A DNA stretch of 64,000 nt from Candidatus Woesearchaeota archaeon (lineage in GTDB: Archaea; Nanobdellota; Nanobdellia; Woesearchaeales; JACPBV01), in assembly GCA_016180135.1 (NCBI GenBank), contig JACPBV010000009.1:19248-83247 (forward strand). The letters run 5' to 3'. Shown in pieces: positions 27,828-64,000 of the stretch (position 1 is the first letter of the stretch; each line of letters begins with the position of its first letter). A program made the translations under genes and the position numbers. The notes under the pieces were generated by a model. It was not told where the DNA came from. It ran no database searches and saw nothing but the letters and a program-made list of their open reading frames with translations.

Positions 27828-27863
27828 CTTCACCTTTCAAGATTAAAAAAAGATGGTGTGGGG

Positions 27864-46637: not shown

Positions 46638-48278
46638 TCATTTTTTTCCTTCTTTCTTATCAATATGCGCTTGAATTAACTTTGCTATGTCTTCATGCCC
46701 ACTTTCATTTGCCCGATCTATTGCCGTTTTCCCATATTTATCTTTGGCAAGAGGATCAGCTCCATTCTCTAACAAAATTTTTACAACCTCAAGAAATCCT
46801 AGTCCAGCAGCATTCACTATACAGGGTTTCTGGTACCTATTGGCAATATTCGGATCAACCCCCTTCCCCAGCAAAATTTTTACTATCTCAGGCTTGCCAT
46901 ATTCTACTGCTTGGACTAAATAAGCTTCTCCTGATTGACCAATGCTTTTTTGATCAACGCCCTTTTCGAGAAGCTTTTCAACAACGTTGGTGCGTCCTAT
47001 GTAAATTGCCCATTCAATTGCGGTTAAGTTGTTCTTTTCATCAATAGCGGCCGGATTAGCTCCTGCTTCAAGCAATTTTCCTACAATATCCGCATAACCC
47101 CCTATGGCTGCCGTAATTAGGGGTGTAATTTGGTATTTTTCAGTTACAGCATCAACATTGATACCTTTGGCTGACAACAATTTTTCAACAGTTAAGGGCA
47201 TTTTCCATCTTGCAGCATAATGCAGGCATGACTCTCCATCGAGCAAAATGTTTGGATCAGCCCCTTGACTGAGCAGCTCTTCAACCTCTTGATCGCGATT
47301 CCACCGGACTGCCTCACTCAGTTTAGTATTTAAATCAGCCTTTTCCTCAGCGCTATCAATCTCTCTCTTTTCCGTATCTCCTTTGGCATCAGGAGGGGCT
47401 TTGGGGCTTTCACCTTCAGGCTGCTTTTGTGGAGTTTCATCAGCTTTTTCTTTTTCATTTTTTGCCGAAATCTCCTTTGCTTTGTCAAGGATAATTTGAA
47501 TCTCATTTTGGGCAGATTTAAGTTTTTCTTCAATTTCCGGAAGTTCTTTCTCATCAATAGTTTTTTTATGTGCTCTAATTGAATTTGATAATCTGTTTCT
47601 GAAATCCAAAAGGTTTCCTAACACTCCTTTTTGCTTAAATCCATTAATCAGGGTTTTGAGCTCATCGCCCCCCTCTGCCGCTATAAGAGACCTAGCCGTT
47701 TTAAGATTATCAGTTAGTTTGGAAATTCCATTTTCAAGATTCCGGATTCTGCCTATAAATGCAATAATTTCCTCATCCTGCTGGTCATTGGGTGTTTCCT
47801 TTAATTTAAGGTAGTTGGTATAGCGTTGAAATGCAGAATTCAAGTATCCCTGCTTCCTGGATGCATCTCCCCTTATCCTTAAAGTAATTGCCTTTTGGCT
47901 GTTCGATAGCTTATTCCAAACCTCACCGGACAATAATCTGTCAGTAGAGAAATCACAATCCTGGTATCTCCCAAGCATATAATAAATTCTTGCAAGGAGC
48001 AGTTCTGCAAAATAATCATCAGGATTAGCGCCAAGATGCAATTTAAGCGACTTCCGGTATTTATCTTGTTTTATCACTTTTATGATGCGGGTATCAAAAA
48101 CCTCCATCTTATTGAGCATATAATCCGTATATTTTTCTCTGGACTGGAGTATAGGGAGCCGGAGTGTAAGCAACTTTAGCCCCTCTCTCCCCAGCTCTTC
48201 CTCCATTACTTTGACTGTAAAATAGTCTCCTTTCTCAGGCTTCACTTCGACTGTAAGGTTTTTTTGTTCTTTTCCCAT
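46638..48278 (-). CDS. TPR-like plus coiled-coil plus ankyrin-repeat protein (546 aa)
   Basis: At least six C-terminal ankyrin repeats (CLHYAARWKMPLTVEKLLSAKGINVDA; TPLITAAIGGYADIVGKLLEAGANPAA; LTAIEWAIYIGRTNVVEKLLEKGVD; YLVQAVEYGKPEIVKILLGKGVDPN; IVNAAGLGFLEVVKILLENGADPLA; KTAIDRANESGHEDIAKLI). The start codon overlaps the stop of the 1720-aa gene by one nucleotide at 48278. Confidence 0.85.
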   Translation of the reverse strand: MGKEQKNLTVEVKPEKGDYFTVKVMEEELGREGLKLLTLRLPILQSREKYTDYMLNKMEVFDTRIIKVIKQDKYRKSLKLHLGANPDDYFAELLLARIYYMLGRYQDCDFSTDRLLSGEVWNKLSNSQKAITLRIRGDASRKQGYLNSAFQRYTNYLKLKETPNDQQDEEIIAFIGRIRNLENGISKLTDNLKTARSLIAAEGGDELKTLINGFKQKGVLGNLLDFRNRLSNSIRAHKKTIDEKELPEIEEKLKSAQNEIQIILDKAKEISAKNEKEKADETPQKQPEGESPKAPPDAKGDTEKREIDSAEEKADLNTKLSEAVRWNRDQEVEELLSQGADPNILLDGESCLHYAARWKMPLTVEKLLSAKGINVDAVTEKYQITPLITAAIGGYADIVGKLLEAGANPAAIDEKNNLTAIEWAIYIGRTNVVEKLLEKGVDQKSIGQSGEAYLVQAVEYGKPEIVKILLGKGVDPNIANRYQKPCIVNAAGLGFLEVVKILLENGADPLAKDKYGKTAIDRANESGHEDIAKLIQAHIDKKEGKK

Positions 48279-51200
48279 CAGCTATCCCTTTTGAAAGTTA
48301 AAGCGTATTTCCGTACTCCGGAGGATACAGTTACTGGTTTTCCATCAAGCTTGGCAGGAAGCTCATCAGATTGCGCCTGTTGGATGATGTCTTGAGCCTT
48401 TTCCGGAGAAATTTCTTCTTGTGCAGCAGGAAGCGCATAATCCGATGTCGGGTTGGGGATTTTATTAAACTTTTTGACCGGAATAACAATAATAGTGGCT
48501 TCATCTAAAAGCCTATTATCCTTCTGATTTAAGCATTCAACGATATAATTCCCGGAAAATAATGGGCCCACCTCAACTTCTCCAGTCTTTCCAGGCTTGA
48601 TTTCCTGTGTTATTTGCCGTTCGACCCGATAAAGCCCGGGTCGTGTCGGAATAAATCTTTTTAATTTCCATAAGACCTGAAACCCCTTTCCCCCCGCATT
48701 GGCAACAATAGTGGAGAGTAATGTGCTTGAGGGAACCTGGACGGTCTTATGCAATGGGACTGGGTATGCTCTTCCCCCGATAACAATCTGGGAGATAGAA
48801 AATTCAGGATTTACCAATATCACTATTGTTGCAGTTTGCTGGCCGGTAATATACCATGAATCAATCCCCCCATACTCTTTAACTCTGCGTAATGCCTCAA
48901 AAGTCACCGTATATTCCCCAGGCTTTTCAAAAGTACGCAATGTTGTGAATATCTCCTTCCCATGATAGGGAAAAAATGTCGGGGTTCCTTGTATATCTGA
49001 CCAGACCCATCGGTATCCATCAGGTCTTTCCTTTAATTTCAGGGGAACTGTAATCTCAAGGGTCTCTCCAAGTTTTGCCTTAAATGCCTTACCATCCCTG
49101 AAAACCGCCCCTTTTGACTGCGTGCTGCGAACCATAACCTCCCCAAGAACTATCTTTCCTCGCTTAGCTTCCCTTTTTGGGATCGTCGGAGAAGGCTGCT
49201 TAATCTGCGTTTGGGCAAAAGGCACTTTTTCTTCGTGCCTGCCGACTGAAAGATAGGCTCTTTTTACCTGTGTGCTAAATCCAATTGGCGTGAAGATGAT
49301 TTCATATTCTCCTTTGGGGAGGCGCGTATCGGGATAAACAATAACTTCTGAAGAGGAAGATTCACCTTCTTCGGGTTTGCGGTGGTTTCTTCGCATTGGT
49401 AAGATAACTGCTGAATAAAAGAATTTCCTTGGGGGATTCTTAACTGAAATGCTGAAATCAACAACATCTGTCGGAAGGAGTCTATACCCTATAACTTCTT
49501 TTTTTTGATATTGAATCCATGCTGGATCCAACCTTTTTCCATTAACTCTCGGTATGATTGGGCCAAGGCTCAGAGGAGGGGGTTCTTCCGTTTGATAATC
49601 TGCGCTTTCTCTTGATATCTGTTCCTGCATCTTTTCGACAGAATCAGATTCCTTATCCTCAGGTATTGCATCTACAGATTTTTTCCTGGATTCACTTGGG
49701 CTTGAAGCCTCATCTTCGTTTACCTTGCCTTCACCCCCCATTTTCTTTTTTTGCCGTTTTGGGCCGGGTTTCTCCATGAAAGAAATAATCGATTGGATGT
49801 CCTCTAGTACTGTTTTTACATTCCTGGCTGTTTGCTCAATAATAAGATTCTGCCATTCTCTATACCAACTTAATAGATGTTTATGGGCAAAATCCCAGTT
49901 AAATGAAAGCACCATGCTTCCAATTAATCGTTGCATCTCTTCAACAATCTCGGGAGAGATTATCTCCTGCGTTTCTTGTATTGCTTTGTCAAGAGGGGTA
50001 GGATATTCTTTCAGACGGGAAATCTCAGTTTTAAGTGCAACAATCCATTCATAGGAATCCTTGAATTCAGCCTTTTTATTTCTTATCTTTGGATAAACCT
50101 CAAGGAATTTTGCGATCGCATCTGTTACTGGCTTCAATCCTTGGTCAATAGCTGCCCCCCACCCCCCTCCAATGGAGAGGAGTTCTTTTAATTCTTTGTC
50201 AATCTTTTCTACGAATACTTTATATCCTACACCATCAAAAACATTTCCGTTTTTTTTCCATTCCTCTTCACCGACGTAATCACGGATACCCTCGTTGATA
50301 AAATCTTTGGGACCCGTAAATTTCCCTTGTGCCCTTCCTCGGATATATTCTTTAATAGAGCCAAGGGGCTGTTTTGAAAGCTCGACAGCAAATTTTTTTC
50401 GGAAGGCTTCAAACTTTCCTTGATCGGCTTTAGCTACAGGGAACTTGTTCCTGATGTTCTCCAAAAATTCCTTGTTTGCTCGTTTCTCAAGATTGTTTAT
50501 TGCCTGCTTTAGTTTTTCCTCAATGTCCTGGGGCATCAACTTTAGTTTATGTTCCAGCTCAAGGAGCCTTGACGACTGGTAGACTCTGATGCTATGAATC
50601 AACCTTCTTAACATATCCCTGTGCATCGATTCAACATCTTCCTGAGATTCCCGGTCTTTACCGCCTGGGTCATCAAATCTTCTTTGTCTCCTCAATTTTT
50701 CTTCAATCCCCCTCTGCCTTGCCTGTTTCCTTTCTTCCTTCTTAACCACTTCATAAGGCAGTTCCGGAGTTTCAGGTCTTTTTAATATGACCTGAACTTC
50801 AGCTTGGTTGAATGGAATGAATTCATCAATAACTGTGGCGGTAACTTTTAATTTTGCATGTCCAGGGGCATGATCCGATGCGATCGGAAGAGAGCTTGGA
50901 CTGCTTCGCAGGAATCTTCCTTCATGAAGAAGCTTTTCTTTTCCATTATGGTCTTGTATATACCAGCGGTATTTGAATTTCTGTTCATCATGGAAATAGC
51001 TTGGATAGGCCCCCTCAAAATCCGCTTCCAAATCATATACTGGCTGTCCAATGATTAGTTCAGCGTTGTCCCTCGGTCTGACAACTACCATCTCATTCCT
51101 AACCACGGTGATGGGCACTTCAGCAAACGCGCGGGTTTGGTTGTTTTCAAATTCATAAAGTATTACATGAATAATTCCCTTTCCAGAAACCTGGGGCGGT

Positions 51201-53440
51201 AATATTGCTGGATTGTCTTTATTGGATTCATGCCCATCAAAAAATGGAATCCCCTCCCCTTTCTGGCTAATAAAGAACCATCGGAAAGAAAACCTTTTTG
51301 TGTTGTAGAACTCATCGGGGAACGGCCCAGTTACAGCTGCTTTAAGGTGAGTCAAAGGCACTCCGGAGAAAAGCACTTCCCCTTTTCCGGGTTTTTCTAT
51401 TGCAAGCCCCATGACTCTCACAGGAACTTCGGTGAAGGCAAAATTGTTCCGTTCACCATTGACTATCTCAAAGGCATACAAAGAAACTTTAGCATTTCCT
51501 ACTTGAGAACTAGGACTGATTATCTTGCTCTGGTTCTTTTGAAGGGTGGATAGCCCATTAAAAAGATGTTGTGTGTGTGGGTTAGATTCTTGTAGATACC
51601 ATTGAAAGAAGAATTCCTGGTGCTTAAATGGCTTAACCGGCTTATGGAACTCTGCCTGCAACTTCGGGATAGGCATCCCCGCAAAAACAGGATCATTTGG
51701 CTTCGGATGAATAATCTCAAGGGCATTTTGTTGCTTTGGTTCAACAACAAAATATGCAGCTTTTTGGACAGCGCCTTCCCCCTTCTGAGGATAAGGGAAA
51801 GCAGCCACTCTGATGTAATGGATTCCCCTTTCTGAAAATTTTACTTCGGTTGTAAGCTCAGGGTCGTTGTTGTAGGGGAATCTTTTTATATCACTTTTTC
51901 CTTTTTTGCTTTTTGGCATCCCGTAGTCCCAAGATATCTCCTCAGGAGAGCCGTCAAGAACTTTGGATATAGCAGTAATCCAGGTATTCTGGGGAACTCT
52001 GTAGAAATTTCGGTTTTTCTGCACACCTTCACCTTCGATTCGTAAATCTGCCAATATAATTGGTGCTTTCTCTAAATCTGGCAATTGCAGCCTCCTAAGC
52101 GGTATCACCACCTGGCTGTTCTCAAAGTTAAAATCTGTTGTATGCAAATAATGGCCAGGAATCCCGCCAAAATCCTTGAGAATGTGCCATCCCAGATGCA
52201 TCGCATCAATCGGCGTTGTGCCAGTGAATGCAACCACAAGGACAGCTTTCTTGCCGATGGGAATCTGGAAATCAAACTCTCGGTCATAGGGGACAGGAAG
52301 GAATTGGGTTTCACCCCCGGTGGGTGTCTTTATCCTCAAGGCCGCCTGGAATATTCTCCGGTCAGGTTGTCCAGTTTTGAGCCATTCTTCCAATAATGAA
52401 AGAATCTCCGGTGTGCAGTTTTCAACAGCAAAAATCGTAACTGTAGAGAACTTCCAGGGGTCTTTCGGATCGACTTTTACAGTTATTGTTGAAGTCGGCG
52501 GCCCAGTAGGTGGTGAAGGAGTTTGTGGCTTAGGCTCAGGTGGTGGCTCTTGAGCCCCTCCATCTCCCCCAGACCCCCCATCTCTCTCATCCTGACCTCG
52601 TTCCACAACCTCTTTATGAGTGGCAGTTTGTTTTTCTTCGGCAGGCACATCTTTATTTTCCTGAGGCTCTTGTTTGGGTTGCGGAGTATCCCCTTCATCT
52701 AGATCCCCGCCCTCACCTTGCCCTTTTTCTGTAGGTGTGCCAGAAATGGTTGCATCATCTGATTGGGGGGAAGTTGTTCCTTTCAGATTCTCATCCGTTA
52801 CATCTTCGGTTGGCGATTCACCGGATGAATCTTTCTCTGTAGCAGGTTCGAGTTCAGAATCTTCCGTGGCTGTAAAATCCCTTTTAATGAGTTTCAGTTC
52901 TTCGGGAGTTAAAATTGTTCCAGATTCAGATTCTTGACTTGTGTTTGGGACAGAATCTTTAGGTTGGCCTTTTGATTTATTGAATTCTTCTCTCTGCCCT
53001 GCAATAGTGTGCATGGTGCGAGAGAATGGTTGACCTTCTAATATACCAGATTCTTCTCTTCCCTCACCTGCCTGAGGAAACACTCGGCCTAAAGACAAAA
53101 TGAGGCCGTTAATCTTTAAACTCAAATCCTGCTGATCAATAGGATTATCAGTCCCCTTAAACTCAATTGTTTGTAAATTGGTTAGGGTGGCTTTTGCATC
53201 TTCCCTTTCATCCCCTTTAAGCTTTTCTATCAACATCTCTTTTAGCCTACTAAGATAACTCACCTCCTCAGGGGATAGGCTTCTGTTTACCGCAATATTC
53301 GCAGCCCCAGCTAAAGCCTCAATCGCATCCTCAGAGGTTTTAATTTCTTTGTTAATATCAAGCATTGTGGCATTCTCTTCAGTAACATGGGGGATCTCTC
53401 TTTCCCGACCTGCGATAGTGCTTGGGTTTGATATTGCCAT
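48278..53440 (-). CDS. Giant hypothetical protein (1720 aa), no N-terminal signal peptide; acidic/Pro-rich N-terminus, beta-rich repeat modules, central helical region
   Basis: Uninterrupted 5.2-kb ORF. Acidic low-complexity aa ~150-300 and a PPPEPKPQTPSPPTGPPTS linker. Three tandem ~105-aa repeats (nt ~50780-51720). The C-terminal third contains further beta-sandwich-like segments. Confidence 0.85.
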   Translation of the reverse strand: MAISNPSTIAGREREIPHVTEENATMLDINKEIKTSEDAIEALAGAANIAVNRSLSPEEVSYLSRLKEMLIEKLKGDEREDAKATLTNLQTIEFKGTDNPIDQQDLSLKINGLILSLGRVFPQAGEGREESGILEGQPFSRTMHTIAGQREEFNKSKGQPKDSVPNTSQESESGTILTPEELKLIKRDFTATEDSELEPATEKDSSGESPTEDVTDENLKGTTSPQSDDATISGTPTEKGQGEGGDLDEGDTPQPKQEPQENKDVPAEEKQTATHKEVVERGQDERDGGSGGDGGAQEPPPEPKPQTPSPPTGPPTSTITVKVDPKDPWKFSTVTIFAVENCTPEILSLLEEWLKTGQPDRRIFQAALRIKTPTGGETQFLPVPYDREFDFQIPIGKKAVLVVAFTGTTPIDAMHLGWHILKDFGGIPGHYLHTTDFNFENSQVVIPLRRLQLPDLEKAPIILADLRIEGEGVQKNRNFYRVPQNTWITAISKVLDGSPEEISWDYGMPKSKKGKSDIKRFPYNNDPELTTEVKFSERGIHYIRVAAFPYPQKGEGAVQKAAYFVVEPKQQNALEIIHPKPNDPVFAGMPIPKLQAEFHKPVKPFKHQEFFFQWYLQESNPHTQHLFNGLSTLQKNQSKIISPSSQVGNAKVSLYAFEIVNGERNNFAFTEVPVRVMGLAIEKPGKGEVLFSGVPLTHLKAAVTGPFPDEFYNTKRFSFRWFFISQKGEGIPFFDGHESNKDNPAILPPQVSGKGIIHVILYEFENNQTRAFAEVPITVVRNEMVVVRPRDNAELIIGQPVYDLEADFEGAYPSYFHDEQKFKYRWYIQDHNGKEKLLHEGRFLRSSPSSLPIASDHAPGHAKLKVTATVIDEFIPFNQAEVQVILKRPETPELPYEVVKKEERKQARQRGIEEKLRRQRRFDDPGGKDRESQEDVESMHRDMLRRLIHSIRVYQSSRLLELEHKLKLMPQDIEEKLKQAINNLEKRANKEFLENIRNKFPVAKADQGKFEAFRKKFAVELSKQPLGSIKEYIRGRAQGKFTGPKDFINEGIRDYVGEEEWKKNGNVFDGVGYKVFVEKIDKELKELLSIGGGWGAAIDQGLKPVTDAIAKFLEVYPKIRNKKAEFKDSYEWIVALKTEISRLKEYPTPLDKAIQETQEIISPEIVEEMQRLIGSMVLSFNWDFAHKHLLSWYREWQNLIIEQTARNVKTVLEDIQSIISFMEKPGPKRQKKKMGGEGKVNEDEASSPSESRKKSVDAIPEDKESDSVEKMQEQISRESADYQTEEPPPLSLGPIIPRVNGKRLDPAWIQYQKKEVIGYRLLPTDVVDFSISVKNPPRKFFYSAVILPMRRNHRKPEEGESSSSEVIVYPDTRLPKGEYEIIFTPIGFSTQVKRAYLSVGRHEEKVPFAQTQIKQPSPTIPKREAKRGKIVLGEVMVRSTQSKGAVFRDGKAFKAKLGETLEITVPLKLKERPDGYRWVWSDIQGTPTFFPYHGKEIFTTLRTFEKPGEYTVTFEALRRVKEYGGIDSWYITGQQTATIVILVNPEFSISQIVIGGRAYPVPLHKTVQVPSSTLLSTIVANAGGKGFQVLWKLKRFIPTRPGLYRVERQITQEIKPGKTGEVEVGPLFSGNYIVECLNQKDNRLLDEATIIVIPVKKFNKIPNPTSDYALPAAQEEISPEKAQDIIQQAQSDELPAKLDGKPVTVSSGVRKYALTFKRDS

Positions 53441-53464
53441 TTTTTTCAGTTTTTTTTATTTGGA

Positions 53465-56077
53465 TTATTTGTTATTAGGTTGTCCACTCTGCTTCCATTT
53501 AAGCGAGGAAGCTTCTTGGGGAATTCTTAACTGGCCATTTCCCATTTCTGCATATCTTTTATTGAGGTCTGGAACATCGCTCGGCCCTTGCTCTCGAGCC
53601 ACCACCTCACTCCAGACTTGTTGAATAGTTACATCCTCACCCCTAATTTTTCGTCTTCTAAACTCCTCTCGGACAATTTCCCCTATTCTTGGATTACTTC
53701 TTTGCCCGTCATCTTGTTTATGGTCACCCCGAGCGTTTATGATGGTTGGGGCTAAATATCCATAGGAATCAATTGGTACCATTCCTCCCCCCCGGGGGAT
53801 ATAGTTCACCATCCCCCGTTGGGTTGTTGGCTTTCCTTCTATGACTTTACCTTTAAACGTCACATAATTTCCTCTCAGCACAAGAGGGACTTTTATATTA
53901 TCAATAAGCCCCGTGATAGTAGGTATTGGATTCAATCCTGAGCCCCCAAGCGCAGTATTTGTGTGATAGCCAATTCCAAGGGCATCTTCATGGTAAGCAA
54001 TGACAATAATATTCTTTGTCCCAGCTTTAACCCCATCAATGATGAACCCCCCATCATTTTCGGTTTTTTTGTTAGCATTGAAGCGGGGTCTATTCTCTAA
54101 AGCCTTTTCAAGTTCTTGTTTTGTTATGAGCGTCTTATTTCCTAATCTTTGGATAAGGCCGGGAAATGCCTCTGCCGCAATAACTTCCGCATTTCCAACG
54201 CCTTCATCAGTATTCGCCTTGATGACTTTTCCAGAAATGCGGGAATCGTAAGTGAAAGCCTTTTCTAATGTTGCCTTGAAAGTATTAGCTTCAATAACAA
54301 GGTCAACGGTCTGTCCGGGAGGGCCTGCAGGAGTCACTCCTTTGATAGAGGTTCCCTTGAGGTCTATCTGGACATTAGTTAAAGGATTGCTTCCTAACAG
54401 GATTCTCGTTGCCTGGCCGATATTAGCGCAATAGATGGTAACTGTTGTGCCCCCGGAAGCAGGGCCACGATTAGGATTAACAGAAAAAATAGTTGGCTTT
54501 TTAATCTCACTTAAAGATTTTAAAATTTTGATTTGTTCATTTAATTTTGTTATCATTAAGTTAATGAAATGAAATTGGCAATCAGTTGTTAGGTGTGTCA
54601 CGTCAAATGGAGTAGTTGTTGTCTTAAGACAAGATTCTATTATTTGTTTTATAGCCTCAACTCTTGTTTTTGCCCATTTGCCAGATAACCTGTCTTCCAG
54701 CCTTTTTTCAAACGCAGCTTGTGATTCTCCTAGGGCTTTTTGTTCATTGAGATGAATAAGTTCGGTATCTGTAACCCCCTCTTCCTGTTTGAGGGGTATT
54801 TTTATCTTTCCAGCAAAGCCTATAACCTCATTGCAGATTGAAATTCCACCTTCTAATACTTTTATCTCTCTAAGAATTTGTCCAACAATATAATTATCGT
54901 GCCCTACTTTTTTTAATACATCATTCAATCTATCTTTGTTATCAGTAAACATTTTCAGGTAACCATTCTCCATCCTTTCTATATGGTTAATTCCTTGGTT
55001 AAGCTGTTTGATTCGTTCTTTATTATCGAGCTGGAGAAACCAGAGCTGCCATACTGTCTCGTAAAGGTGTTTTCTCAGGATGAACTTTTTGACAGCATGG
55101 CCAACTAAATATGTCGGCGGCCTGAGATAAGCTCTCCAGTTATCAGAATCTGCGCCCATTAATCCCTGTTTTGGGGGTTTTTCCCTAATGTCCCACATCT
55201 TCTCAAGGAGCTTTTTCTTACCATCCTGTATATTTGTTAACTCGTCTATTGCTTTTTTCTTTCCTTCGATAGAAATAGCCAATGGTGTTAGAGGTGGAAT
55301 CTTCCCCTTATGTTTCCAAAACAGCAATAACAGCAAAAGCACCACCGCCAACAGCCCTCCCCCGCCATACCCGGCTATCTTCCCCCACGGAAGGCCGTCT
55401 TCTTTTTTCTCCTCTTTTTTAGGCGTCGCTTCTTCTTTTTTCTCCGGTCTGTCCGGCGTTGGAACTGGAACTGGCTGAATTCCGCCGTCAGGAGGCGTAG
55501 TTCCCTGATATGGCGCAGGCGCTAATGGCCCGCCCCTGCCTCCGAATCTTCCGCCCAATCCTGAAAACCAGTCCAAAAATCCAGTCCCAAATCTTCCTTC
55601 CTGGGTCATGTACCATGCCCACAGCACCAGCAAAGTCGCTATCAGGAAAGCCAAAAACAAAGCCCATCCTTTGTGGTTCTCCAACCCCATCTTCAGCAGC
55701 AGCAGATAAATAATCAAAACAAGGATCAAATACGCCAGCCCGAGTGCGATATACCCAAAATTGATGAGCTTGAACTTATTCGTCACAACAAGGATGATGG
55801 AAGCGAGCATCGCAGCTGCCAAACAGAACACCGTTACCGGCTTAGTGATCTCGCCGAACGCGGTCTTTGAGCCGATGAGGAACGCAGCAAAGAAAAGGAA
55901 GAACAGCAGCAAAAATCCGAGCGTTGCCTCATACCGTTCCCAGCCGCTCTGGAAAAAATTTTCCATCGAATCCCATACATTGAAGAAAGCATCCCCGATT
56001 GCCCCAAAAGCAAAAGGCGCGAGCGTGATAGCTAGGAAAATCCCCAGCGCCAAAATTCCGATCATCTTCCTGCTCAT
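53465..56077 (-). CDS. Polytopic membrane protein with IPT/TIG-like and carboxypeptidase-regulatory-like beta domains (870 aa)
   Basis: About 5 N-terminal TM helices, a Gly/Arg and Pro-rich linker and one further TM (GGGGLLAVVLLLLLLFW), then a helical region. IFSVNPNRGPASGGTTVTIYCANIG...GVTPAGPPGQTVDLVI is IPT/TIG-like (nt ~54250-54490). ISGKVIKANTDEGVGNAEV follows. Confidence 0.85.
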   Translation of the reverse strand: MSRKMIGILALGIFLAITLAPFAFGAIGDAFFNVWDSMENFFQSGWERYEATLGFLLLFFLFFAAFLIGSKTAFGEITKPVTVFCLAAAMLASIILVVTNKFKLINFGYIALGLAYLILVLIIYLLLLKMGLENHKGWALFLAFLIATLLVLWAWYMTQEGRFGTGFLDWFSGLGGRFGGRGGPLAPAPYQGTTPPDGGIQPVPVPTPDRPEKKEEATPKKEEKKEDGLPWGKIAGYGGGGLLAVVLLLLLLFWKHKGKIPPLTPLAISIEGKKKAIDELTNIQDGKKKLLEKMWDIREKPPKQGLMGADSDNWRAYLRPPTYLVGHAVKKFILRKHLYETVWQLWFLQLDNKERIKQLNQGINHIERMENGYLKMFTDNKDRLNDVLKKVGHDNYIVGQILREIKVLEGGISICNEVIGFAGKIKIPLKQEEGVTDTELIHLNEQKALGESQAAFEKRLEDRLSGKWAKTRVEAIKQIIESCLKTTTTPFDVTHLTTDCQFHFINLMITKLNEQIKILKSLSEIKKPTIFSVNPNRGPASGGTTVTIYCANIGQATRILLGSNPLTNVQIDLKGTSIKGVTPAGPPGQTVDLVIEANTFKATLEKAFTYDSRISGKVIKANTDEGVGNAEVIAAEAFPGLIQRLGNKTLITKQELEKALENRPRFNANKKTENDGGFIIDGVKAGTKNIIVIAYHEDALGIGYHTNTALGGSGLNPIPTITGLIDNIKVPLVLRGNYVTFKGKVIEGKPTTQRGMVNYIPRGGGMVPIDSYGYLAPTIINARGDHKQDDGQRSNPRIGEIVREEFRRRKIRGEDVTIQQVWSEVVAREQGPSDVPDLNKRYAEMGNGQLRIPQEASSLKWKQSGQPNNK

Positions 56078-56601
56078 CTTCTTGCCTTCCGGATAGCTTC
56101 TAAGATCATCTCTTCGCCGAACAGCGCTTTTCCTTTTGCAAGGATGCCCGCAACATCCGCTTCTTTTTGGATCAAAGCTGCACTGAACTGCTCTTCAGTC
56201 TTGCAGATAACATTCACTTCCTTCATCTCCCTGTAGATTGCGCTCTTCACCTTTTCAGCCTGAGAAGTCACAACAAGCAGCTGTTTTCCGTCAAAGATCG
56301 CAGCTTTGCTTTCGTGGGCGATGCTTAAGAAAGGAATCTCAGCGGCTTCAGCCTTCTCCAGCAGCGCTATCGCTCCCAGGTGAAATGCTTTTCTCTCGTT
56401 AAGGTTGACCTCATAGAACAGCCCAGTCCCAAGCTTCTCTGCCTTGACTATGCCGTTGCTCTCTAATTTCTTCAGAGCCGCATGCGCCCCTGCTGCGCTG
56501 AGCCCCATCTTCACAGCAAGCTCGTTGATAGTATGCCTTTGGGAGAAGTTTCTAAGCAAAAATCCGATTATCGCAAATTCGTTCTTGCTTATCGAGAGCA
56601 T
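56074..56601 (-). CDS. Winged-helix transcriptional regulator (175 aa) heading the operon
   Basis: FAIIGFLLRNFSQRHTINELAVKMGLSAAGAHAALKKLESNGIVKAEK. 4-nt overlap with the 870-aa gene start. Confidence 0.7.
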   Translation of the reverse strand: MLSISKNEFAIIGFLLRNFSQRHTINELAVKMGLSAAGAHAALKKLESNGIVKAEKLGTGLFYEVNLNERKAFHLGAIALLEKAEAAEIPFLSIAHESKAAIFDGKQLLVVTSQAEKVKSAIYREMKEVNVICKTEEQFSAALIQKEADVAGILAKGKALFGEEMILEAIRKARR

Positions 56602-56964: not shown

Positions 56965-57108
56965 ATGAAGCACCGCATCTCGGTCTCAGTAGAAGAAAGC
57001 ACCATAAAAGCCGTTCAGGATACCTTAAGGACGGGAAAGTTCAGGAACAAATCGCACATCATCGAATTTGCGGTGCAGCAGTTCCTCGGAGGAAAAAATG
57101 GCCGATGA
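56965..57108 (+). CDS. Ribbon-helix-helix (CopG/Arc/MetJ-type) DNA-binding protein (47 aa; below ORF-track cutoff)
   Basis: My translation is MKHRISVSVEESTIKAVQDTLRTGKFRNKSHIIEFAVQQFLGGKNGR, a beta-strand/helix/helix pattern typical of RHH proteins. It overlaps the next gene's ATG (57098) by 11 nt. Confidence 0.55.
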   Translation: MKHRISVSVEESTIKAVQDTLRTGKFRNKSHIIEFAVQQFLGGKNGR

Positions 57109-57853
57109 TCACGGACATGATGCTCCAGCCCATGATGCCCATGGCGCTGCTCCGGCAGCTCCCTCAGCAAGCCCGGCAGCAGTCGGAAACTTCTTGGAAG
57201 ACCTGGTAAAAGGCACCGAAAGCCTATGGGAAGGCGTTAAAGGTATTCCTGAAGTTGGGAAAGACGTTATGAGAGTTTCTTGGGATGTCTCGATAGCGCT
57301 TGGCTCAGTAGGATTAAGCTATTCTTGTGTTGGCATGGACGCTTTGATCCTTGGAGGTGGCTTTGGGACCGGAACTCTGGTAAAAAACCTTATCAAAGGA
57401 GAATCTCCTTCCTTAAACGAGCTTTCAAAATCAATCCGTGTTGGCGCTATCCTTGCAATCCCTACCCATTACACATTTGAAGGTGTTGGCATGGCCGGAG
57501 CATGGGCAAAAGCCCATTATGGCAGGACAGCAGGCATCGCCGCAAGGGCGGCATTAGGCGTTGCAAACATCCCCCCGTTCATTGAGATTGACGAGATGAT
57601 AAGGAGAATGATGATTGCTGATTACAAGCCAGTTCCATGGGAAGAGCGCTGGAGAAAGAACCTGGCAACAACGGCAATGTTCTCCCCTCTTGTAGCCGTT
57701 AACCTTAACCTCCCTGAGTTTTTCCCAGGTTACAACCCCATGTTCGGCGCAGCATTCAACACAACAGTCTATTCAGCCGCCTTTGGAGTCCCAAGACAGA
57801 AGAAGGAAGATAAGCCTGCCCACGCATCAGTCGGGCCTCAGGAGCATAATTAG
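57098..57853 (+). CDS. Hypothetical membrane-associated protein with His/Asp-rich N-terminus (251 aa from ATG 57098)
   Basis: MADDHGHDAPAHDAHG..., then Gly/Ala-rich hydrophobic segments (ALGSVGLSYSCVGMDALILGGGFGTG, VGAILAIP, GMAGAWA). No family recognised. Confidence 0.6.
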   Translation: MADDHGHDAPAHDAHGAAPAAPSASPAAVGNFLEDLVKGTESLWEGVKGIPEVGKDVMRVSWDVSIALGSVGLSYSCVGMDALILGGGFGTGTLVKNLIKGESPSLNELSKSIRVGAILAIPTHYTFEGVGMAGAWAKAHYGRTAGIAARAALGVANIPPFIEIDEMIRRMMIADYKPVPWEERWRKNLATTAMFSPLVAVNLNLPEFFPGYNPMFGAAFNTTVYSAAFGVPRQKKEDKPAHASVGPQEHN

Positions 57854-58020
57854 GAAACAATGGTGTTGAAATGTATCTATTTCTTGAAAACAATAACATT
57901 GAAAGGTATCTATTTCTTGAAAACAATGGCATTGCAATGGAGCTGTTTTTGAGAAATGATGAATTAGGATGTGCCTAAATCTTTAAACTTGGCACTGAAA
58001 TAAGCTCATTTCTGAAGAAT
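57854..58020. repeat. ~33-bp tandem repeat, 2 good plus ~3 degenerate copies
   Basis: Units start at 57854, 57886 and 57919 and then decay. The shared core is TTGAAA[T/G]GTATCTATTTCTTGAAAACAAT. A T8 run follows at 58039-58046. Confidence 0.8.
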
Positions 58021-58090: not shown

Positions 58091-60100
58091 TTAACTTTTA
58101 TCCCCCCTCAATTTTTTGTTTATTGAAGTGATGTCTATGCTAAACGGATCCATATTGAGATCACTCCCAAAAATGCGCGGACCATAATCGAACCCCAAAG
58201 TTTCTTTGGCAGCATGTTGGAGGTCATGATGTATCTCTTCAATCTTTTTCCCATTCCGGCAAATGTATTCTATAAAAAACATAGACATGCCTCTGGTTGT
58301 AAGGACGGGAGAAATTTGCTCATTTTTGGGGACATTCTCAACATGCTCATAATATCTTTTTTTTCCAATATACATAAATCCCAATAATCCTTCTTCCATA
58401 AGATGCTCAGATAAAACTCTAAAATCGCATGCGGGATTTAGGTTAGTTGCCTCCCTTGTCGGGGATACCTCATTGAAAGTATCTCCCTTCTTTGTTGTGT
58501 GGGGATGACGAAATCTTAAAGTGTAATCCCTAAATGATTTGCGCCCCGGCATTGGCGGATCTGCAAGCTTTTTAGCTGCCTCGATATTTTTTCCTTTATT
58601 TTGCCTAAACACAGGTACATCAACAAAATCCCACGCACCTTCTGGTGTGGGATTATTTGCCATAATATAATCCATGACGGTTAGGCTGTGGGGGTGATAC
58701 CTGCCATCCCTCAGATCATCACGGTATTCATCCCACTCATTAAATATATAATTCACCATCTCAAGGGCATCAACATCAGTGATCAAATCATGATATTCTT
58801 CGGGGATGACTCTCCATTGACCTCCTCGATCAACATAGTCTGAATCAGGAAAACTGAATACGTCCAGAAGAAAAGTGCCTTTCTTTAATCTCTTTTTTTT
58901 ATATTCAAGGCTTCCATCAGGGGTTTTTGTAATGCGTTTAAATTCATAATCTTCATTAGCAACTTCAAACTCCATGCCATATTCATCCAAAAGATACTCC
59001 ACTTCCTCAATCTCTTGTCCTCTGTTATCCTTATTAAGATCTAATGCCCCGCCTTTGCTTTTACTGCGAATCAATTTATTTCTCTCAAAAAGGGTTTTTA
59101 GCTCAGTAATTTTTATCTTTTCTTTAATTCCCTTCTCACTAATATCGAGGGAACTCGTTTTTATTGTTTCATATGTGTGCCTGTATAAAATGTTTTGGGG
59201 AATATTCGATTTAACCATTATCCGATAATTCCTAAGCTCCTTATGAAGATTTATCAACCCATCCAAAAATGATTTGTGTTCTTGCTCACGCACAACAATA
59301 GATTTGTATCCGGTTGATTCCCATTCACCAAAAAAAGTGGCTAACTGACTTATAATCTCCTCGATACCTGATTTGAATCCACCAAAAAAAATTCCCCTCT
59401 GTTCATCAATAGTATTTAAGTTCGGCGCCGGTATGTTTGTCCTAATCCAATGTTCAACATGCAGATTAATCTTATCAATTATACCGGTGTAAATCTTTTT
59501 TAGAGCTTCATGATGATCATAACCGAAGTATCTTACCCGTTGCACATATCCTGAGGGGAAGGTTATTTCAACTTCTCGCGGAATTGGAACTCCAAATTTC
59601 TTCCCAAGAATCTCAAAAGGCTCAGCTTTAATCTTACTCCCACGTATAGCACTTTCTTTCCCCGTTGATTTATGGATGATAATTTTTTCAAAATCCTCTT
59701 CAAATTCGTAATACTCACCTTCATTAACGCTTGTTGCTTCTTCAAAACCAGTCCCACCCCTTAAAGAATATTCGCTCTCAACAACATCTGGGTGCGTGTA
59801 AGGTCCAAGTTTAGCATAAATCCCAGCTATGTTTGGTCTTAAATCCTCCTCAATATTATAATACGTGGGAAATTCTTTGCTTGGGTTTTCAATAAGCTTT
59901 AAATGTTCGTTTAGTTTGTTTAAAATTGAAAATAACTCCTCAATGTCTAGGGTGGGTTCAAGACTCTTTTTACCAGCCCTGCTAAATCTAAAATTTAGCC
60001 CAAAACGCCTAAATGGTTTCGTAAACCTCCTTAAACCAGCTTTTATTTTGTCTCCAACCCACCCAGCGTATTGGTTTCTTTCGCTTCCAGCTTCAGACAT
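58091..60100 (-). CDS. Hypothetical protein (669 aa from MSEAGS), paralogue of the 610-aa protein; G-R-Y-HPHSL motif
   Basis: Clean ORF. Start trimmed to ATG 60100, giving an 8-nt overlap with the upstream gene. The motif GRYHPHSL is encoded at ~58682-58705. Confidence 0.8.
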   Translation of the reverse strand: MSEAGSERNQYAGWVGDKIKAGLRRFTKPFRRFGLNFRFSRAGKKSLEPTLDIEELFSILNKLNEHLKLIENPSKEFPTYYNIEEDLRPNIAGIYAKLGPYTHPDVVESEYSLRGGTGFEEATSVNEGEYYEFEEDFEKIIIHKSTGKESAIRGSKIKAEPFEILGKKFGVPIPREVEITFPSGYVQRVRYFGYDHHEALKKIYTGIIDKINLHVEHWIRTNIPAPNLNTIDEQRGIFFGGFKSGIEEIISQLATFFGEWESTGYKSIVVREQEHKSFLDGLINLHKELRNYRIMVKSNIPQNILYRHTYETIKTSSLDISEKGIKEKIKITELKTLFERNKLIRSKSKGGALDLNKDNRGQEIEEVEYLLDEYGMEFEVANEDYEFKRITKTPDGSLEYKKKRLKKGTFLLDVFSFPDSDYVDRGGQWRVIPEEYHDLITDVDALEMVNYIFNEWDEYRDDLRDGRYHPHSLTVMDYIMANNPTPEGAWDFVDVPVFRQNKGKNIEAAKKLADPPMPGRKSFRDYTLRFRHPHTTKKGDTFNEVSPTREATNLNPACDFRVLSEHLMEEGLLGFMYIGKKRYYEHVENVPKNEQISPVLTTRGMSMFFIEYICRNGKKIEEIHHDLQHAAKETLGFDYGPRIFGSDLNMDPFSIDITSINKKLRGDKS

Positions 60101-61703
60101 TGGTTCCCACCCCAGAATGAGTTTCATCCAAAATGGCGAAATATCCAATCAATTCTTTGGATTTTTCCAATATCTCAACTCCTTTAGAAATTATCTCCTT
60201 TGAAAGTTCGCTAGTTTTTTGGACTATCCCCCCTACCTGCTCCTCGGAATTTTTTTCTAAAGAGTGCAGACCTGTAAAATACCCCAACAACGAGTAATTT
60301 AACATTAACAGCGTTCTCGTATTCTTCGCTCTAAAACTTTTGCTTGCTGCTTTAGTTCTTCCTAACATCCCCACCATGCCTGAGGAATCTTCTTCGAGGA
60401 GCCTTATTCTGGAATCAAAATCCACCTCTTGATTGAAAACTAGTAATCTGTTCATAAATTCCGCCTTCAGCCCTAGTAGGGTATCCTCTTTTTTTAAGAA
60501 TAGTTTTCGAAGTGAATATAACTTTCGAATAAGCTCCTTCTTCTTATCTTTTGCAATTCTTCTTAGCAATAGTATTTGGGGTCTTGAAATGGATAAACCC
60601 CTTTTCAGAATCTGTAAAAAACTATCTTTAAGTTCATTAAAGCTTTTTTCTGCCTTTGTTTCAACTGCTTCATTGGACAGGTTAAAAAGAGCAAGAAGGC
60701 TTTGTTGGCCATCATAAATTATTTGGCTCGAATTTTCTAATGAGTATATCATTTTTTTAAGCTTTTCTTCCCATTTAAGGGGCTGTTGGCCATATGAGGC
60801 ATGATCCTTTAATGCAGCCTGGAGTTCGTTGGAAGCAACAGGATCATGGTAATACTCAAATACCCTTTTATAAATATGTTTCATATTCCCATAAACCTGG
60901 AGAAAGCTCTTCCATTCTGCCTCATCTTTGCCAATCTCAATCCTTCTCAATATATCCTTAAGAAATAAAATTTCCTCTTTAAGAAGTGAGAAATGCTCCA
61001 ATCTCTGGTCCCTTAGAAGAGAATCTATATCTGGGTTAGCAAATGACTTTAATATCTCTTGGTAATGTTTGGCTTCTTCAATATACTCTGAAAGATACCT
61101 TTCAGACAGCCTCCATCTTTTAACCTTTTCCTCAAAGGAAAAGATATACCTCCTTTGCTGGCCTCTTTTGATCATTATCTCCCTAAAAGCATTAATAAAT
61201 TGGATAAACCTTAATCTCAAGTCCTTTTGAGTTATTTTACCAATTTGTTCGGTAATCTGACTTGCGGAAGACCTTAGGAAAATTTCGAGTTTTTCTTTTG
61301 TGCTTTGCATGAATTCGTTATAAACGGATAACACTTCTTTTGGGATTTTTGAAAGGCTTGCTATATCAGTTGCCCTTTCAGCAAGCTCAGGATCAGATTC
61401 TCGAATTGGGCCTATTTGGTTTAGAAGAGCATCAACAAAACCCCTTTCATCTTTCTTGTGATGTTTAAACGTATTTAAAATGGTCTCGCACGCAATCAAT
61501 TGTGGAAAAAACTTAGCCTGATTTTTTTCATCAAAGATAAATCTTCTTATGAATTTAATCTTTTCTTCAGTAACTCTTAACGGTTTAAGGATGTGATTAA
61601 CGATTATCAAGTATGTTCGTTTTATTGAGAAATGTAAAGAATCTCCTAGACTACTGCGATCTTCTCCAATTTTTTCTGGGCGGTTAGTATTCGTCATTAT
61701 CAT
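60093..61703 (-). CDS. Hypothetical all-helical protein (536 aa)
   Basis: Clean ORF, Lys/Glu/Leu-rich, no TM and no motif recognised. The start codon directly abuts the stop of the 610-aa gene. Confidence 0.8.
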   Translation of the reverse strand: MIMTNTNRPEKIGEDRSSLGDSLHFSIKRTYLIIVNHILKPLRVTEEKIKFIRRFIFDEKNQAKFFPQLIACETILNTFKHHKKDERGFVDALLNQIGPIRESDPELAERATDIASLSKIPKEVLSVYNEFMQSTKEKLEIFLRSSASQITEQIGKITQKDLRLRFIQFINAFREIMIKRGQQRRYIFSFEEKVKRWRLSERYLSEYIEEAKHYQEILKSFANPDIDSLLRDQRLEHFSLLKEEILFLKDILRRIEIGKDEAEWKSFLQVYGNMKHIYKRVFEYYHDPVASNELQAALKDHASYGQQPLKWEEKLKKMIYSLENSSQIIYDGQQSLLALFNLSNEAVETKAEKSFNELKDSFLQILKRGLSISRPQILLLRRIAKDKKKELIRKLYSLRKLFLKKEDTLLGLKAEFMNRLLVFNQEVDFDSRIRLLEEDSSGMVGMLGRTKAASKSFRAKNTRTLLMLNYSLLGYFTGLHSLEKNSEEQVGGIVQKTSELSKEIISKGVEILEKSKELIGYFAILDETHSGVGTNV

Positions 61704-63536
61704 TTATGAATGCCCTCCTTCTGTTTTTGTCTTGGCGGGTGCCCCAACAAAGACTTCCTTCGAAGTTGGGCCCCCCCAAATAAATTTCCCAGCCTGAGCT
61801 TTGCCAAATTGGTCTGCAAAATGTGAAAGGTAGCTTCCAACAAATGCGCTAATCCCCGAAGTTGTTAGCGTTGGATAGGGGTTTGCAGGCTCATTTTTAA
61901 TAAGGGATTCTTCAACTTTTCCAATATCTTTGATTCCCCAATAAATAAATTTTCCTGAATCTTTGAGAGCCTCTAAATCAAATGCAGGGTTTCCATCTTG
62001 AGCTTCTCCGGCTTGATGGATATCCTTAAAAATAATGCTTTTTCTGTCTAATAATTCCTCATAGCTAATTGCAAGAAGGCTATGGGGATGGAATGTACCA
62101 TGGATAACATCTCTCACAAAATAATGCCAATCACGTTCCATAGTTGCTAGCGGGATAGTCATATCAGGATGATCAATAATATTGTTGATAATGACCCTTT
62201 TTCCACCGACAATAATATATTCCACGGGCTTAATCCTGTAGAGTGGGATTGTCTCATCTCCACTATATCTGATTTGGTTCAACTGCTTAATAAAATACCC
62301 ATCTAAGTCAACCTCGTAATCAAGGATATTCCCAATCTTATACCTATCGGGGTCTCTCTGAGATTTGTTGCCCACAACCCCCTCTTCATGTTCCCCGGAT
62401 ATTTTTATAGTATAAAAAACATCACTCCCCTCCTTTTTGACAGTATAGGTTACTTTATATTTGGTTGCACCAGCTCTTGCAAACTTATAGAAATGGCAAA
62501 ACTTTCCAAACATCAGGTATTGATTAAAAATAATCAGCCTTGCATTCTTAAGCTGGTTATGGCCAGAATATCTCTTAAACTCCCCAGGATACCTTTTCTC
62601 AGCTGTTCCTTTTGGTCCTTGAAATGCAAGAAGGTTTCCATTCATCTCTCTGATTAGGTCCCCCTCATTTCTTTTTTCGCCCATTTTTAGATCCATAAAA
62701 ATATGTTTATCCGATGCTCCTCCCGCAGATGGGGGGGTTAAAAATTTTTTAATATTGCTAAAAAAAGTTAAGATCACAATATGATTTGCCATTCCTCCAT
62801 AAAGTGTTTGGAAGCTTTGATTATTTAGAAAATCTCCATTATTTTCTACATAATAACCCTCTTTCCTAGGTAAAAGGTCTATCGATTCCCCAAAATTTTT
62901 ATTGTCGTATTTCCAACCCCATTTCAATATATCATACCTCAACTCAACTCTTCTTGGATCATAATAAGCAAGGGCGGTACCTCCTTCATCTTTTTCTTCA
63001 GTGTAAGTGGTAGTGTAAATTTGAGATATTTCCTTAGACTTCCCACTAACATAATTTGCTTTTCCAAAATAAACTTCAAGCCTAAGCATGTAATTCATGT
63101 TTGCCCAAAAAAGGGCCCAAAGCTGCCTTATTGTTGGATTAAGCTCTTCATCTGTCGTACCGCCAGCATTAGTTGTATACTTTAATCCCCATTGCTGGAT
63201 GAACCACCTTATAACTCCCCAATCCAAACGATGGAGATTTTTTGTAAACTCTTTAATATTGTAAGAGAGGTCATCCATAAACCCACGTTTTGCTTTTTCT
63301 TTTGCCTCCCCTTTCCCGATTGACATCAGCATCACAACAATGACAGCTAGCATCACTAATCCGCCAATCAAAGTCCCCACTATTTTAAACGCCCCGGAAA
63401 ACTGCCCGCTCCCCTCACCAGTAACTCCTGCGCTTTTCAGGGAAAGGACAATAATCCCGGTGATGACAGCAGTAGCTACTAGAGTAAGAATCCATCCTTC
63501 CATGCTGTCCGGGTCCTTAAACTTTCCAATGTCCAT
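61704..63536 (-). CDS. Hypothetical protein with two N-terminal TM helices (610 aa), paralogue of the 669-aa protein; G-T-F-HPHSL motif
   Basis: WILTLVATAVITGIIVLSL and IVGTLIGGLVMLAVIVVMLMSI are the TM helices. GTFHPHSL is encoded at 62076-62099. GAGG lies upstream of the ATG. Confidence 0.8.
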   Translation of the reverse strand: MDIGKFKDPDSMEGWILTLVATAVITGIIVLSLKSAGVTGEGSGQFSGAFKIVGTLIGGLVMLAVIVVMLMSIGKGEAKEKAKRGFMDDLSYNIKEFTKNLHRLDWGVIRWFIQQWGLKYTTNAGGTTDEELNPTIRQLWALFWANMNYMLRLEVYFGKANYVSGKSKEISQIYTTTYTEEKDEGGTALAYYDPRRVELRYDILKWGWKYDNKNFGESIDLLPRKEGYYVENNGDFLNNQSFQTLYGGMANHIVILTFFSNIKKFLTPPSAGGASDKHIFMDLKMGEKRNEGDLIREMNGNLLAFQGPKGTAEKRYPGEFKRYSGHNQLKNARLIIFNQYLMFGKFCHFYKFARAGATKYKVTYTVKKEGSDVFYTIKISGEHEEGVVGNKSQRDPDRYKIGNILDYEVDLDGYFIKQLNQIRYSGDETIPLYRIKPVEYIIVGGKRVIINNIIDHPDMTIPLATMERDWHYFVRDVIHGTFHPHSLLAISYEELLDRKSIIFKDIHQAGEAQDGNPAFDLEALKDSGKFIYWGIKDIGKVEESLIKNEPANPYPTLTTSGISAFVGSYLSHFADQFGKAQAGKFIWGGPTSKEVFVGAPAKTKTEGGHS

Positions 63537-63562
63537 TTTTTTTCCTCTTAAGGATGTGTTGC

Positions 63563-64000
63563 TCAGGGGGGTGTACCGCCGCCCGCAGCTGCTCTTGCTC
63601 CGATTATCCTTTGAATGAACCTCACGATGAAAAAGATAATGGCCCCTATGATAAGGGTTGCAATGTAGATATTGCTAAACACCCATTTGATAATCCCCCA
63701 AATCCCATCAATAAACACTGCATGCAGTATTCCCCCCGTCGAGGGAAATGCAAGATTTGCAAGCAGCAGGACCAATATCACTGCCCCAATGCCTGCAGCC
63801 TGGTTATTCCCAAAAGTGCTCTTGAGCTGCGTAAAGAACAACAGCCCAAACACAATCTCCCCGAAGGCAATCACCATCTCAACCCCTGTTTTGGGCGAAT
63901 TAGCCATCGAATAAGCGATGATTATTGCCATCATCCAGTTTAGCCCTTTGATTTCTCCTCCCACTTTGAGGATATTGGAGATTAAAAGCAGTGTCACCAG
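63563..64000 (-). CDS. Polytopic membrane protein (at least 144 aa; reading frame still open at the window end)
   Basis: Hydrophobic helices (WMMAIIIAYSM, VIAFGEIVFGLLFF, IGAVILVLLLANLAF, IYIATLIIGAIIFFIV) and a Gly/Ala/Pro tail. First gene of the operon as seen here. Confidence 0.6.
   Translation of the reverse strand: MVTLLLISNILKVGGEIKGLNWMMAIIIAYSMANSPKTGVEMVIAFGEIVFGLLFFTQLKSTFGNNQAAGIGAVILVLLLANLAFPSTGGILHAVFIDGIWGIIKWVFSNIYIATLIIGAIIFFIVRFIQRIIGARAAAGGGTPP

Follow-up and report, generated by a model that had tools for sequence, protein, structure and literature searches.

A conserved operon of three uncharacterised protein families, two of them paralogous, in Woesearchaeota

DPANN archaea are abundant and for the most part uncultured; their 'hypothetical' proteins make up much of what distinguishes them from other archaea. 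Families restricted to Woesearchaeota and Pacearchaeota are mostly unannotated and many are membrane-associated, as described in passages of two studies (Castelle et al. 2021, PMC8204110; Meheust et al. 2022, PMC9258230). The literature that we searched holds only anonymous lineage-specific modules for these archaea and no description of the gene cluster analysed here, which occupies positions 58,091 to 64,000, on the minus strand, of a 64,000-nucleotide (nt) stretch of contig JACPBV010000009.1 from Candidatus Woesearchaeota archaeon (assembly GCA_016180135.1); the whole of this stretch is referred to below as the window. The cluster encodes protein A, a membrane protein with a soluble module, protein C, and protein B, a soluble paralogue of the module of A. 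We conclude with high confidence that A-C-B is a Woesearchaeota-specific (Nanoarchaeota in GTDB), vertically inherited operon core made of three uncharacterised families, two of which are ancient paralogues.

Four open reading frames (ORFs) of the cluster fall inside the window, all on the minus strand. The A-N gene, which encodes the polytopic membrane half of protein A, is cut by the window end, such that only its 3' part (144 of 303 codons) is present at 63563..64000 (ORF 63563..63997). It is followed by A-C (61704..63536; HYU14_02690), whose 610-residue product carries two N-terminal transmembrane helices, a basic juxtamembrane stretch and a soluble module of the A/B type, and then by C (60093..61703), which encodes a soluble, presumably helical protein of 536 residues with a low Pro and Gly content (0.06). 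The last gene, B (58091..60100; HYU14_02680), encodes the soluble paralogue of the predicted cytoplasmic module of A, with 669 residues from the ATG at 60100 or 685 residues from the TTG at 60148. A-N and A-C are separated by 26 nt, A-C and C by 0 nt, and C and B share an 8-nt overlap, ATGTCTGA. The ORF coordinates and junctions thus agree with the tight coupling of four ORFs claimed in a first-pass annotation of this DNA, and the peptides quoted there were located by translation at the residues given. NCBI names both HYU14_02690 and HYU14_02680 'hypothetical protein' of Candidatus Woesearchaeota archaeon, and Rfam and tRNA scans of the 64-kb window were empty.

The same annotation counted four genes, a number that needs to be revised. 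An exact-sequence look-up of the 610-residue protein identified a Logan contig (L001) that reaches ~300 nt past the window end and contains the complete A-N gene (L001:301-1212, 303 residues), preceded by a gene for a 55-residue protein that overlaps A-N by 11 nt. The order in the source genome is the 55-residue putative ribbon-helix-helix (RHH) regulator, A-N (303), A-C (610), C (536) and B (669), so that the four ORFs in the window are the 3' four-fifths of a five-gene operon. Moreover, the membrane ORF and the 610-residue ORF are the two halves of a single gene that is fused in most relatives: the 303-residue A-N protein matched fused A proteins in their N-terminal membrane domain (BLASTP E = 1e-10 and 2e-8) and the 610-residue ORF matched the region after it.

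We assessed the distribution of the families with searches of differing sensitivity. A word-indexed search returned 14 homologues of the 669-residue protein and, for the 610-residue protein, the query alone, both with the single sequence and with a five-sequence profile. The latter result is misleading, as orthologues of the 610-residue protein were recovered through synteny and correspond to residues 211-755 of a fused 759-residue protein in the related locus L002 (1e-59) and to an 809-residue protein in L003 (5e-26). Orthology of C was weak but consistent (6e-8, 2e-7). An exhaustive search with a hidden Markov model (HMM) placed 261 representatives at 50% identity in the B family at E <= 1e-3, with 159 at E <= 1e-30, and a survey of GTDB with one genome for each species located it in 53 species (53 loci). 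With relatives in this number, and with orthologues of the 610-residue protein at such E-values, the products can no longer be called ORFans. The titles of most of the records with a B locus read Woesearchaeota, Nanoarchaeota or Nanoarchaeia. About sixteen bins are titled 'uncultured Methanosarcinales', a label that we presume to be wrong because these bins carry the same cluster.

We called ORFs at every locus, assigned them to families with HMMs trained on the window cluster and its first relatives, and counted the 53 B loci with the window and duplicates excluded. We found A, C and B in this order on one strand in 47 of the 53 loci, and the remaining six were truncated by contig ends, such that the order was kept in 47/47 informative loci. 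Junctions across these loci were mostly between -26 and +12 nt, with a mode of -4 nt from A to C and values of -8 to -26 nt from C to B. This survey of co-occurrence, which the first-pass annotation had proposed, therefore supports a tightly coupled operon well beyond the window. Protein A was encoded by one gene of 730-1040 residues in 26 loci and was split into membrane and soluble halves, as in the window, in 16. The C family, as defined by HMM, comprised 52 members sited between A and B, and the length of B ranged from 396 to 1154 residues. Two genomes carried two B-family loci each (L054 and L055 in JAGVZX01; L050 and L060 in CAYOWR01), which reflects either occasional duplication of the cluster or bins that contain two strains.

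The genes around the cluster were also partly shared among loci. Ribosomal and translocase genes (rpl35ae and secDF) lay upstream in several loci, while families of winged helix-turn-helix (wHTH) proteins and of large polytopic membrane proteins (TMN) lay downstream of B in 20 loci each, sometimes with proABC, PAC2, HEPN/nucleotidyltransferase or Xer-type recombinase genes in between. PAC2 (44209-44919) and an Xer-type recombinase gene (40050-40937) are present in the window as well. Since these neighbours are conserved, the context is chromosomal and vertically inherited.

Base composition could be taken to indicate the opposite. The three large genes have a G+C content of 0.36-0.39 and a G+C content at third codon positions (GC3) of 0.34-0.36, compared with a G+C content of 0.443 for the window and of 0.48-0.50 for housekeeping genes, in which GC3 is 0.49-0.585 (transketolase, aldehyde dehydrogenase, DHH phosphoesterase). 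The deviant composition of the operon relative to core genes, initially noted from single lines of sequence, is thus real, and together with the recombinase gene, a tyrosine recombinase located 17 kb away, and the AAA+ ATPase that adjoins the cluster in relatives, it would fit a horizontally acquired or mobile island of viral, plasmid or defence origin. However, the neighbouring genes for a 1720-residue and an ankyrin-repeat protein also have low GC3 (0.35-0.39), and because other large lineage-specific genes of the window share the feature, we regard low GC3 as a trait of this gene class and not of one island; low G+C as a mark of foreign DNA is not supported here. An island is further contradicted by a gene order that recurs, within conserved chromosomal neighbourhoods, across 47 species-level genomes, by the lack of any relative among 2.9 million IMG/VR contigs, GenBank phages (INPHARED) and PLSDB plasmids, by the lack of a tRNA in the window, and by searches of PADLOC and PHROGs that yielded nothing beyond a weak TmtA match for C. 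We consider a mobile origin extremely improbable, and vertical inheritance of the operon core is the reading retained below.

Sequence comparisons showed that two of the three families are related to each other. BLASTP aligned the 610- and 669-residue window proteins at E = 1e-5, and the B-family profile matched the C-terminal 145 residues of the 610-residue protein (93.8%, E = 1.8e-7). Alignment of the A-family and B-family profiles with hhalign gave a far stronger result (99.5%, E = 6.2e-23) over 396 columns, and the similarity between A and B was repeated inside L002 (2e-7) and inside L003 (2e-8). On the basis of the 396-column alignment, A and B are co-linear paralogues over nearly the whole soluble part: residues 136-584 of the 610-residue protein (61785..63131, minus strand) are homologous to residues 53-629 of the 669-residue protein. 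The paralogy first suspected from two pairs of short peptides is hence upheld, with similarity that extends over ~400 co-linear columns, beyond the HPHSL motif alone. An ancient duplication gave rise to one membrane-anchored (A) and one soluble (B) copy of the same module.

Counts of motif columns in 75 B and 26 A sequences defined a signature common to both families, W-x5-D-x-R-x-G-x-[FY]-H-P-x-S-x5-Y, followed downstream by PAFD, then G-[RK]-K-x-Y(-Y), then [ST]-[ST]-x-G. In translation, the window copies read WHYFVRDVIHGTFHPHSLLAISY in A (62061..62129, minus strand) and WDEYRDDLRDGRYHPHSLTVMDY in B (58667..58735, minus strand), the latter corresponding to the end of helix 445-465 and the next loop in the predicted structure. 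Near-invariant D457, R460, D461, D465 and R467, and a C-terminal D-[YIF]-G-P-R, were particular to B. Column conservation in B was 100% for D457, 99% for R460, D461, R464, D465 and R467, 88% for G466, 91% for H469, 23% for H471 and 73% for S472, while in A it was 96% for W, 96% for D, 77% for R, 100% for G, 96% for H, 92% for P, 100% for S and 100% for Y.

These counts bear directly on the proposal that an invariant His-Pro-His forms a metal or catalytic site. HPHSL occurs in both window proteins amid many invariant polar residues (D, R, D, R, H, S, Y), a pattern typical of active sites that would speak for an enzyme with a metal-binding His-Pro-His centre. Across the families, however, conservation of HPHSL is confined to the first His, the Pro and the Ser. 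In the column of the second His, B proteins have N in 24%, H in 23% and G in 13%, and A proteins have F in 19%, H in 15% and L in 12%. Because this His is variable, an invariant His-Pro-His site is unsupported, and with neither a hydrolase or metalloenzyme match in Pfam, NCBIfam or PDB nor a fold match, such a metalloenzyme is very improbable. Catalysis through the conserved D, R, H and S residues, as opposed to H-x-H, could still operate and is folded into the explanation that we prefer.

Family searches gave no indication of function. None of the four window products had a significant match in Pfam, NCBIfam, PHROGs or PADLOC (best Pfam E = 0.032, far below the cutoff), and the sole PADLOC match was a weak one to TmtA (E = 8e-4) for the 536-residue protein. 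No Pfam family was recurrent when 75 B, 47 C and 26 A members were scanned singly, and profile searches against all PDB sequences returned nothing significant. The initial impression that the products carry no known family, NTPase, protease or nuclease signature therefore agrees with all of these searches. Matches to DUF5856, DUF5752 and PADLOC TmtA were rejected as below threshold and non-recurrent. Likewise, PDB profile matches of the B N-terminus to influenza HA2 and SARS-CoV-2 HR1 (E = 0.03-0.2), and weak matches of C to apolipoprotein and three-helix bundles, were attributed to coiled-coil composition and not to homology. The latter matches, like the low Pro and Gly content of C, are consistent with the all-helical character that the first-pass annotation gave this protein.

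Structure prediction and fold searches were carried out for A and B, as had been suggested in the first-pass annotation. The AlphaFold2 model of B, based on the 75-sequence alignment, was confident, with a mean predicted local distance difference test score (pLDDT) of 84.1 and a predicted template modelling score (pTM) of 0.84. It consists of a basic low-confidence N-terminus, helical hairpins at 48-115, a small beta unit at 157-189, three helices of ~30 residues (194-297), a helix at 322-347, a beta hairpin at 386-404 and a C-terminal alpha/beta domain. Foldseek found no neighbour of this model: the best E-values were 1.4 in PDB and 0.36 in BFVD, and query-normalised template modelling scores (TM-scores) were <= 0.11, so that a confident model still stands without a known fold neighbour. 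The model of fused, full-length A (the L002 protein, 26-sequence alignment) had a pLDDT of 70.3 and a pTM of 0.52, with values of 75-91 in the soluble module, and its Foldseek matches were insignificant (best ABCB6, XaxB/PaxB and flagellin, E = 0.4-0.7). According to these models, the A/B module is predicted to be a helical bundle with beta insertions and a C-terminal alpha/beta domain dense in conserved polar residues, with no detectable solved relative.

Several features point to the side of the membrane on which the proteins reside. A-N shows seven hydropathy peaks. In most of the 26 A proteins, 5-9 of the 25 residues after the last transmembrane helix are K or R, and in three proteins the number is 3. 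Transmembrane-like segments were absent from all 75 B proteins and present in only two of the 47 C proteins, and B and C lack a signal peptide. B has a basic N-terminus: its first 45 residues have a median charge of +4, compared with ~0 for the whole protein, and residues 15-34 of the window B form an amphipathic helix with a hydrophobic moment of 0.81. From the positive charge that follows the membrane domain of A, the absence of transmembrane segments and signal peptides from B and C, and the basic N-terminus of B, we infer that the A module, B and C are probably on the cytoplasmic face of the membrane.

This placement is relevant to the proposal that A, C and B belong to an apparatus with which an episymbiotic DPANN archaeon contacts its host, carries out secretion or forms pores, and in which the polytopic domain of A would serve as a conduit and the helical modules would resemble alpha-pore toxins or needle tips. 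At the weakest level, the A model did retrieve XaxB/PaxB, NheA, IpaD and flagellins in Foldseek (E = 0.4-4, probability <= 0.15), neighbouring genes encode very large TIG, PKD and ankyrin proteins, and many DPANN-specific families are membrane-bound or extracellular in the passages of PMC8204110 that treat them. Yet the fold matches are far below significance (TM-scores <= 0.25), B and C have neither signal peptide nor transmembrane segment, the positive-inside rule places the A module in the cytoplasm, and the cluster contains no secretion ATPase, which makes an apparatus of this kind improbable.

A purely structural scaffold with a cytoskeletal, envelope-anchoring or membrane-shaping role, in which the charged helix face would be a protein-protein interface, deserves more weight. 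Long helices dominate the models (three of ~30 residues in B and one of 57 in A), C is of a helical type and fast-evolving, B carries large variable insertions, as its length range illustrates, and the N-terminus of B is basic and amphipathic. In addition, the invariant D and R residues of B fall at positions i, i+3, i+4, i+7 and i+8 on one helix face, as would be expected for a salt-bridged interface. On the other hand, invariant Gly, Pro, His, Ser, Tyr and Asp residues are concentrated in loops of the C-terminal domain (PAFD, GRKxYY, TTRG, DYGPR), a distribution that is more pocket-like, and neither Foldseek nor PDB profiles detected similarity to known cytoskeletal or membrane-remodelling proteins. 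We judge a scaffold without any pocket function to be rather unlikely, while the alternative to it, a pocket with catalytic or ligand-binding function, is itself a tentative assignment that we would not rate any higher.

The explanation that we prefer combines these elements. The soluble module of A would face the cytoplasm, where B and C would assemble with it at the membrane; A and B would pair as pseudo-symmetric paralogues, with C bridging them as a helical adaptor; and the conserved polar cluster of the C-terminal domain would form a pocket that binds or transforms a ligand at the inner membrane face. The gene upstream, which is the 55-residue RHH-like gene here and a gene for an AAA+/wHTH ATPase in most relatives, would control the operon. 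As a whole, this explanation is in our estimate slightly better than evenly balanced, and its central element, a cytoplasmic, membrane-anchored hetero-complex of A, C and B predicted from sequence features, has about even chances. Less probable, and put forward as a possibility only, is that A-C-B constitutes an undescribed membrane-associated machine with a new fold and a new pocket, a defining, vertically inherited trait of Woesearchaeota with a core function in the envelope, the membrane or host dependence for which other archaea would use different means or which they would lack.

A number of observations weigh against this explanation. Homology yields no function for A, B or C. C is very poorly conserved, with W264 as the single invariant residue of its alignment. 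The window copy of A reads V-I-H-G-T where the family has x-R-x-G-R, and with its R-x-G-R degenerate it may be non-catalytic. The membrane domain of the A model is of low confidence (pLDDT 42-74), because of which the fold search says little about this domain, and crude hydropathy gave between 5 and 11 transmembrane segments in A (mode 8), such that the topology leans on the positive-inside rule and on the absence of signal peptides from B and C. Finally, the 55-residue protein is RHH-like by sequence pattern alone, with a weak match to Pfam RHH_1 (E = 0.056) in one of four orthologues.

The position directly upstream of A was occupied by one of two non-orthologous types of gene. In 34 loci it encodes an ATPase of ~380 residues of the AAA_14/AAA_16 and HTH_45 types (for example L003:4801-5925 and L007:4307-5452), with the Walker A motif GxRKSGKT, a Walker B-like motif L-D-N-F-E and a C-terminal winged helix; its Pfam matches to AAA_14/AAA_16 and HTH_45 are weak and all below gathering cutoffs. 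The 55-residue protein takes this position in seven loci, those of the subclade of the window, and is 82% identical between L001 and L002. No ORF in the window matched the ATPase HMM. The non-orthologous replacement of the ATPase by the 55-residue protein is consistent with a regulatory role. Between species, the ATPase reaches 83% identity, and its mean column identity is 57%, far above the 13-27% of the A, B and C families; conservation of this degree is unusual for a mere operon regulator.

The 55-residue protein displays an RHH pattern, PVKIDAELKKKIE...NFIDKAVLKLL, and its promoter contains a palindrome. Upstream of its gene, a TATA box (TTTAAATA / TTTATATA) followed by GTAAC repeats is kept in L001:95-137 and L002:660-695, and in L001 the repeats form the palindrome GTAACTA-T-TAGTTAC. 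The TATA box and the GTAAC/GTTAC palindrome are likely to represent a promoter together with an autoregulatory operator.

Downstream of B and convergent with it, the window encodes a Gly-rich membrane protein, P261, on the plus strand (57098..57853), with 251 residues from the ATG or 261 from a TTG at 57068. It has an orthologue in L002 (1e-18), and its family was present in 20 loci. The gene lies on the strand opposite to the cluster, before the ATPase gene in some loci and after B in others, the window among them. Within this family, whose members include L029:993-1868 and L025:2080-2985 (both on the minus strand), one protein matched PF04117 (Mpv17/PMP22) with 31 bits against a cutoff of 27, and another scored 20.6 bits, with ~40 residues covered. 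The window P261 itself had no Pfam match and is tied to the matching members by hhalign (98.4%, E = 6e-15), which makes it a candidate distant relative of Mpv17/PMP22. The gap between the stop codons of B and P261 is filled, at 57855-57953, by three tandem 33-nt units (100/85/70% identity) that overlap an imperfect 27-nt palindrome; they may terminate transcription in both directions or be bound by a protein.

Beyond P261, a second, tightly coupled string of co-oriented genes on the minus strand (46638-56601) encodes a wHTH protein, an 870-residue protein, the 1720-residue protein after a 24-nt gap and, with a 1-nt overlap, the ankyrin-repeat protein of 546 residues, all with low GC3. The wHTH protein (56074-56601; 175 residues, 172-175 across loci) matched Pfam HTH_24/MarR_2, and its gene overlaps by 4 nt that of the 870-residue protein (53465-56077), which combines a polytopic N-terminus, a coiled coil and a Pfam TIG domain; both have orthologues in L002 and L003. 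The 1720-residue protein gave a below-threshold match to PKD (18.4 bits, with a cutoff of 23.5 bits). The 870-residue protein and protein A share a signal-like helix at the start and, after it, the motif A-x-(I/V)-G-D, and hhalign of the membrane domain of A with the N-terminal membrane domain of the 870-residue protein gave 46%. Elsewhere in the window, an ORF of 2023 residues on the plus strand (27858-33929) had no Pfam match at E <= 1e-4 and an atypical G+C content of 0.41/0.52/0.56 at the three codon positions, the first being the lowest. Either it encodes an unusual giant protein, or the frame is spurious and lies across genes of the opposite strand.

The results turn one 'hypothetical' block of DPANN genomes into a defined unit of three large families in an invariant order in about 50 species, and provide three or four new families for database curators to define. 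The unit is further marked by the recurrent splitting and fusion of A, the polar signature, and a confident B fold with no solved or viral neighbour. Its conserved residues, its putative partner proteins and its likely promoter and operator are concrete targets for experiments. Should the complex prove to have enzymatic activity or to act as a membrane machine, it would represent an innovation that defines the Woesearchaeota lineage.

Among described proteins, Mpv17/PMP22 are channel-forming membrane proteins that are largely eukaryotic and occur in peroxisomes and mitochondria. The likeness of the locus to this family (PF04117) runs through P261, a neighbour gene outside the four ORFs, and the conservation of an Mpv17-like protein in Woesearchaeota may merit a study of its own. 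Components of ClyA-type toxins (XaxB/PaxB, NheA) and IpaD, the tip protein of a type III secretion system, resemble the A model in having an elongated bundle of helices and a small beta element; in contrast to them, A, B and C are not secreted and have no sequence similarity to these proteins, which the confident B model also failed to retrieve. Archaeal Walker-type ATPases with a C-terminal winged helix (PDB 2qen, Pyrococcus abyssi) weakly match the upstream ATPase of the 34 related loci, whereas the window operon has the 55-residue RHH-like gene in that position instead. The lineage-specific modules of Woesearchaeota and Pacearchaeota are reported, in the keyword-matched passages of PMC8204110 and PMC9258230, as patterns of presence and absence only, with no A-C-B operon, paralogy, motif or fold in those passages; as in the cluster described here, their members are restricted to the lineage and mostly unannotated, and the proteins of the cluster carry no database name other than 'hypothetical protein'.

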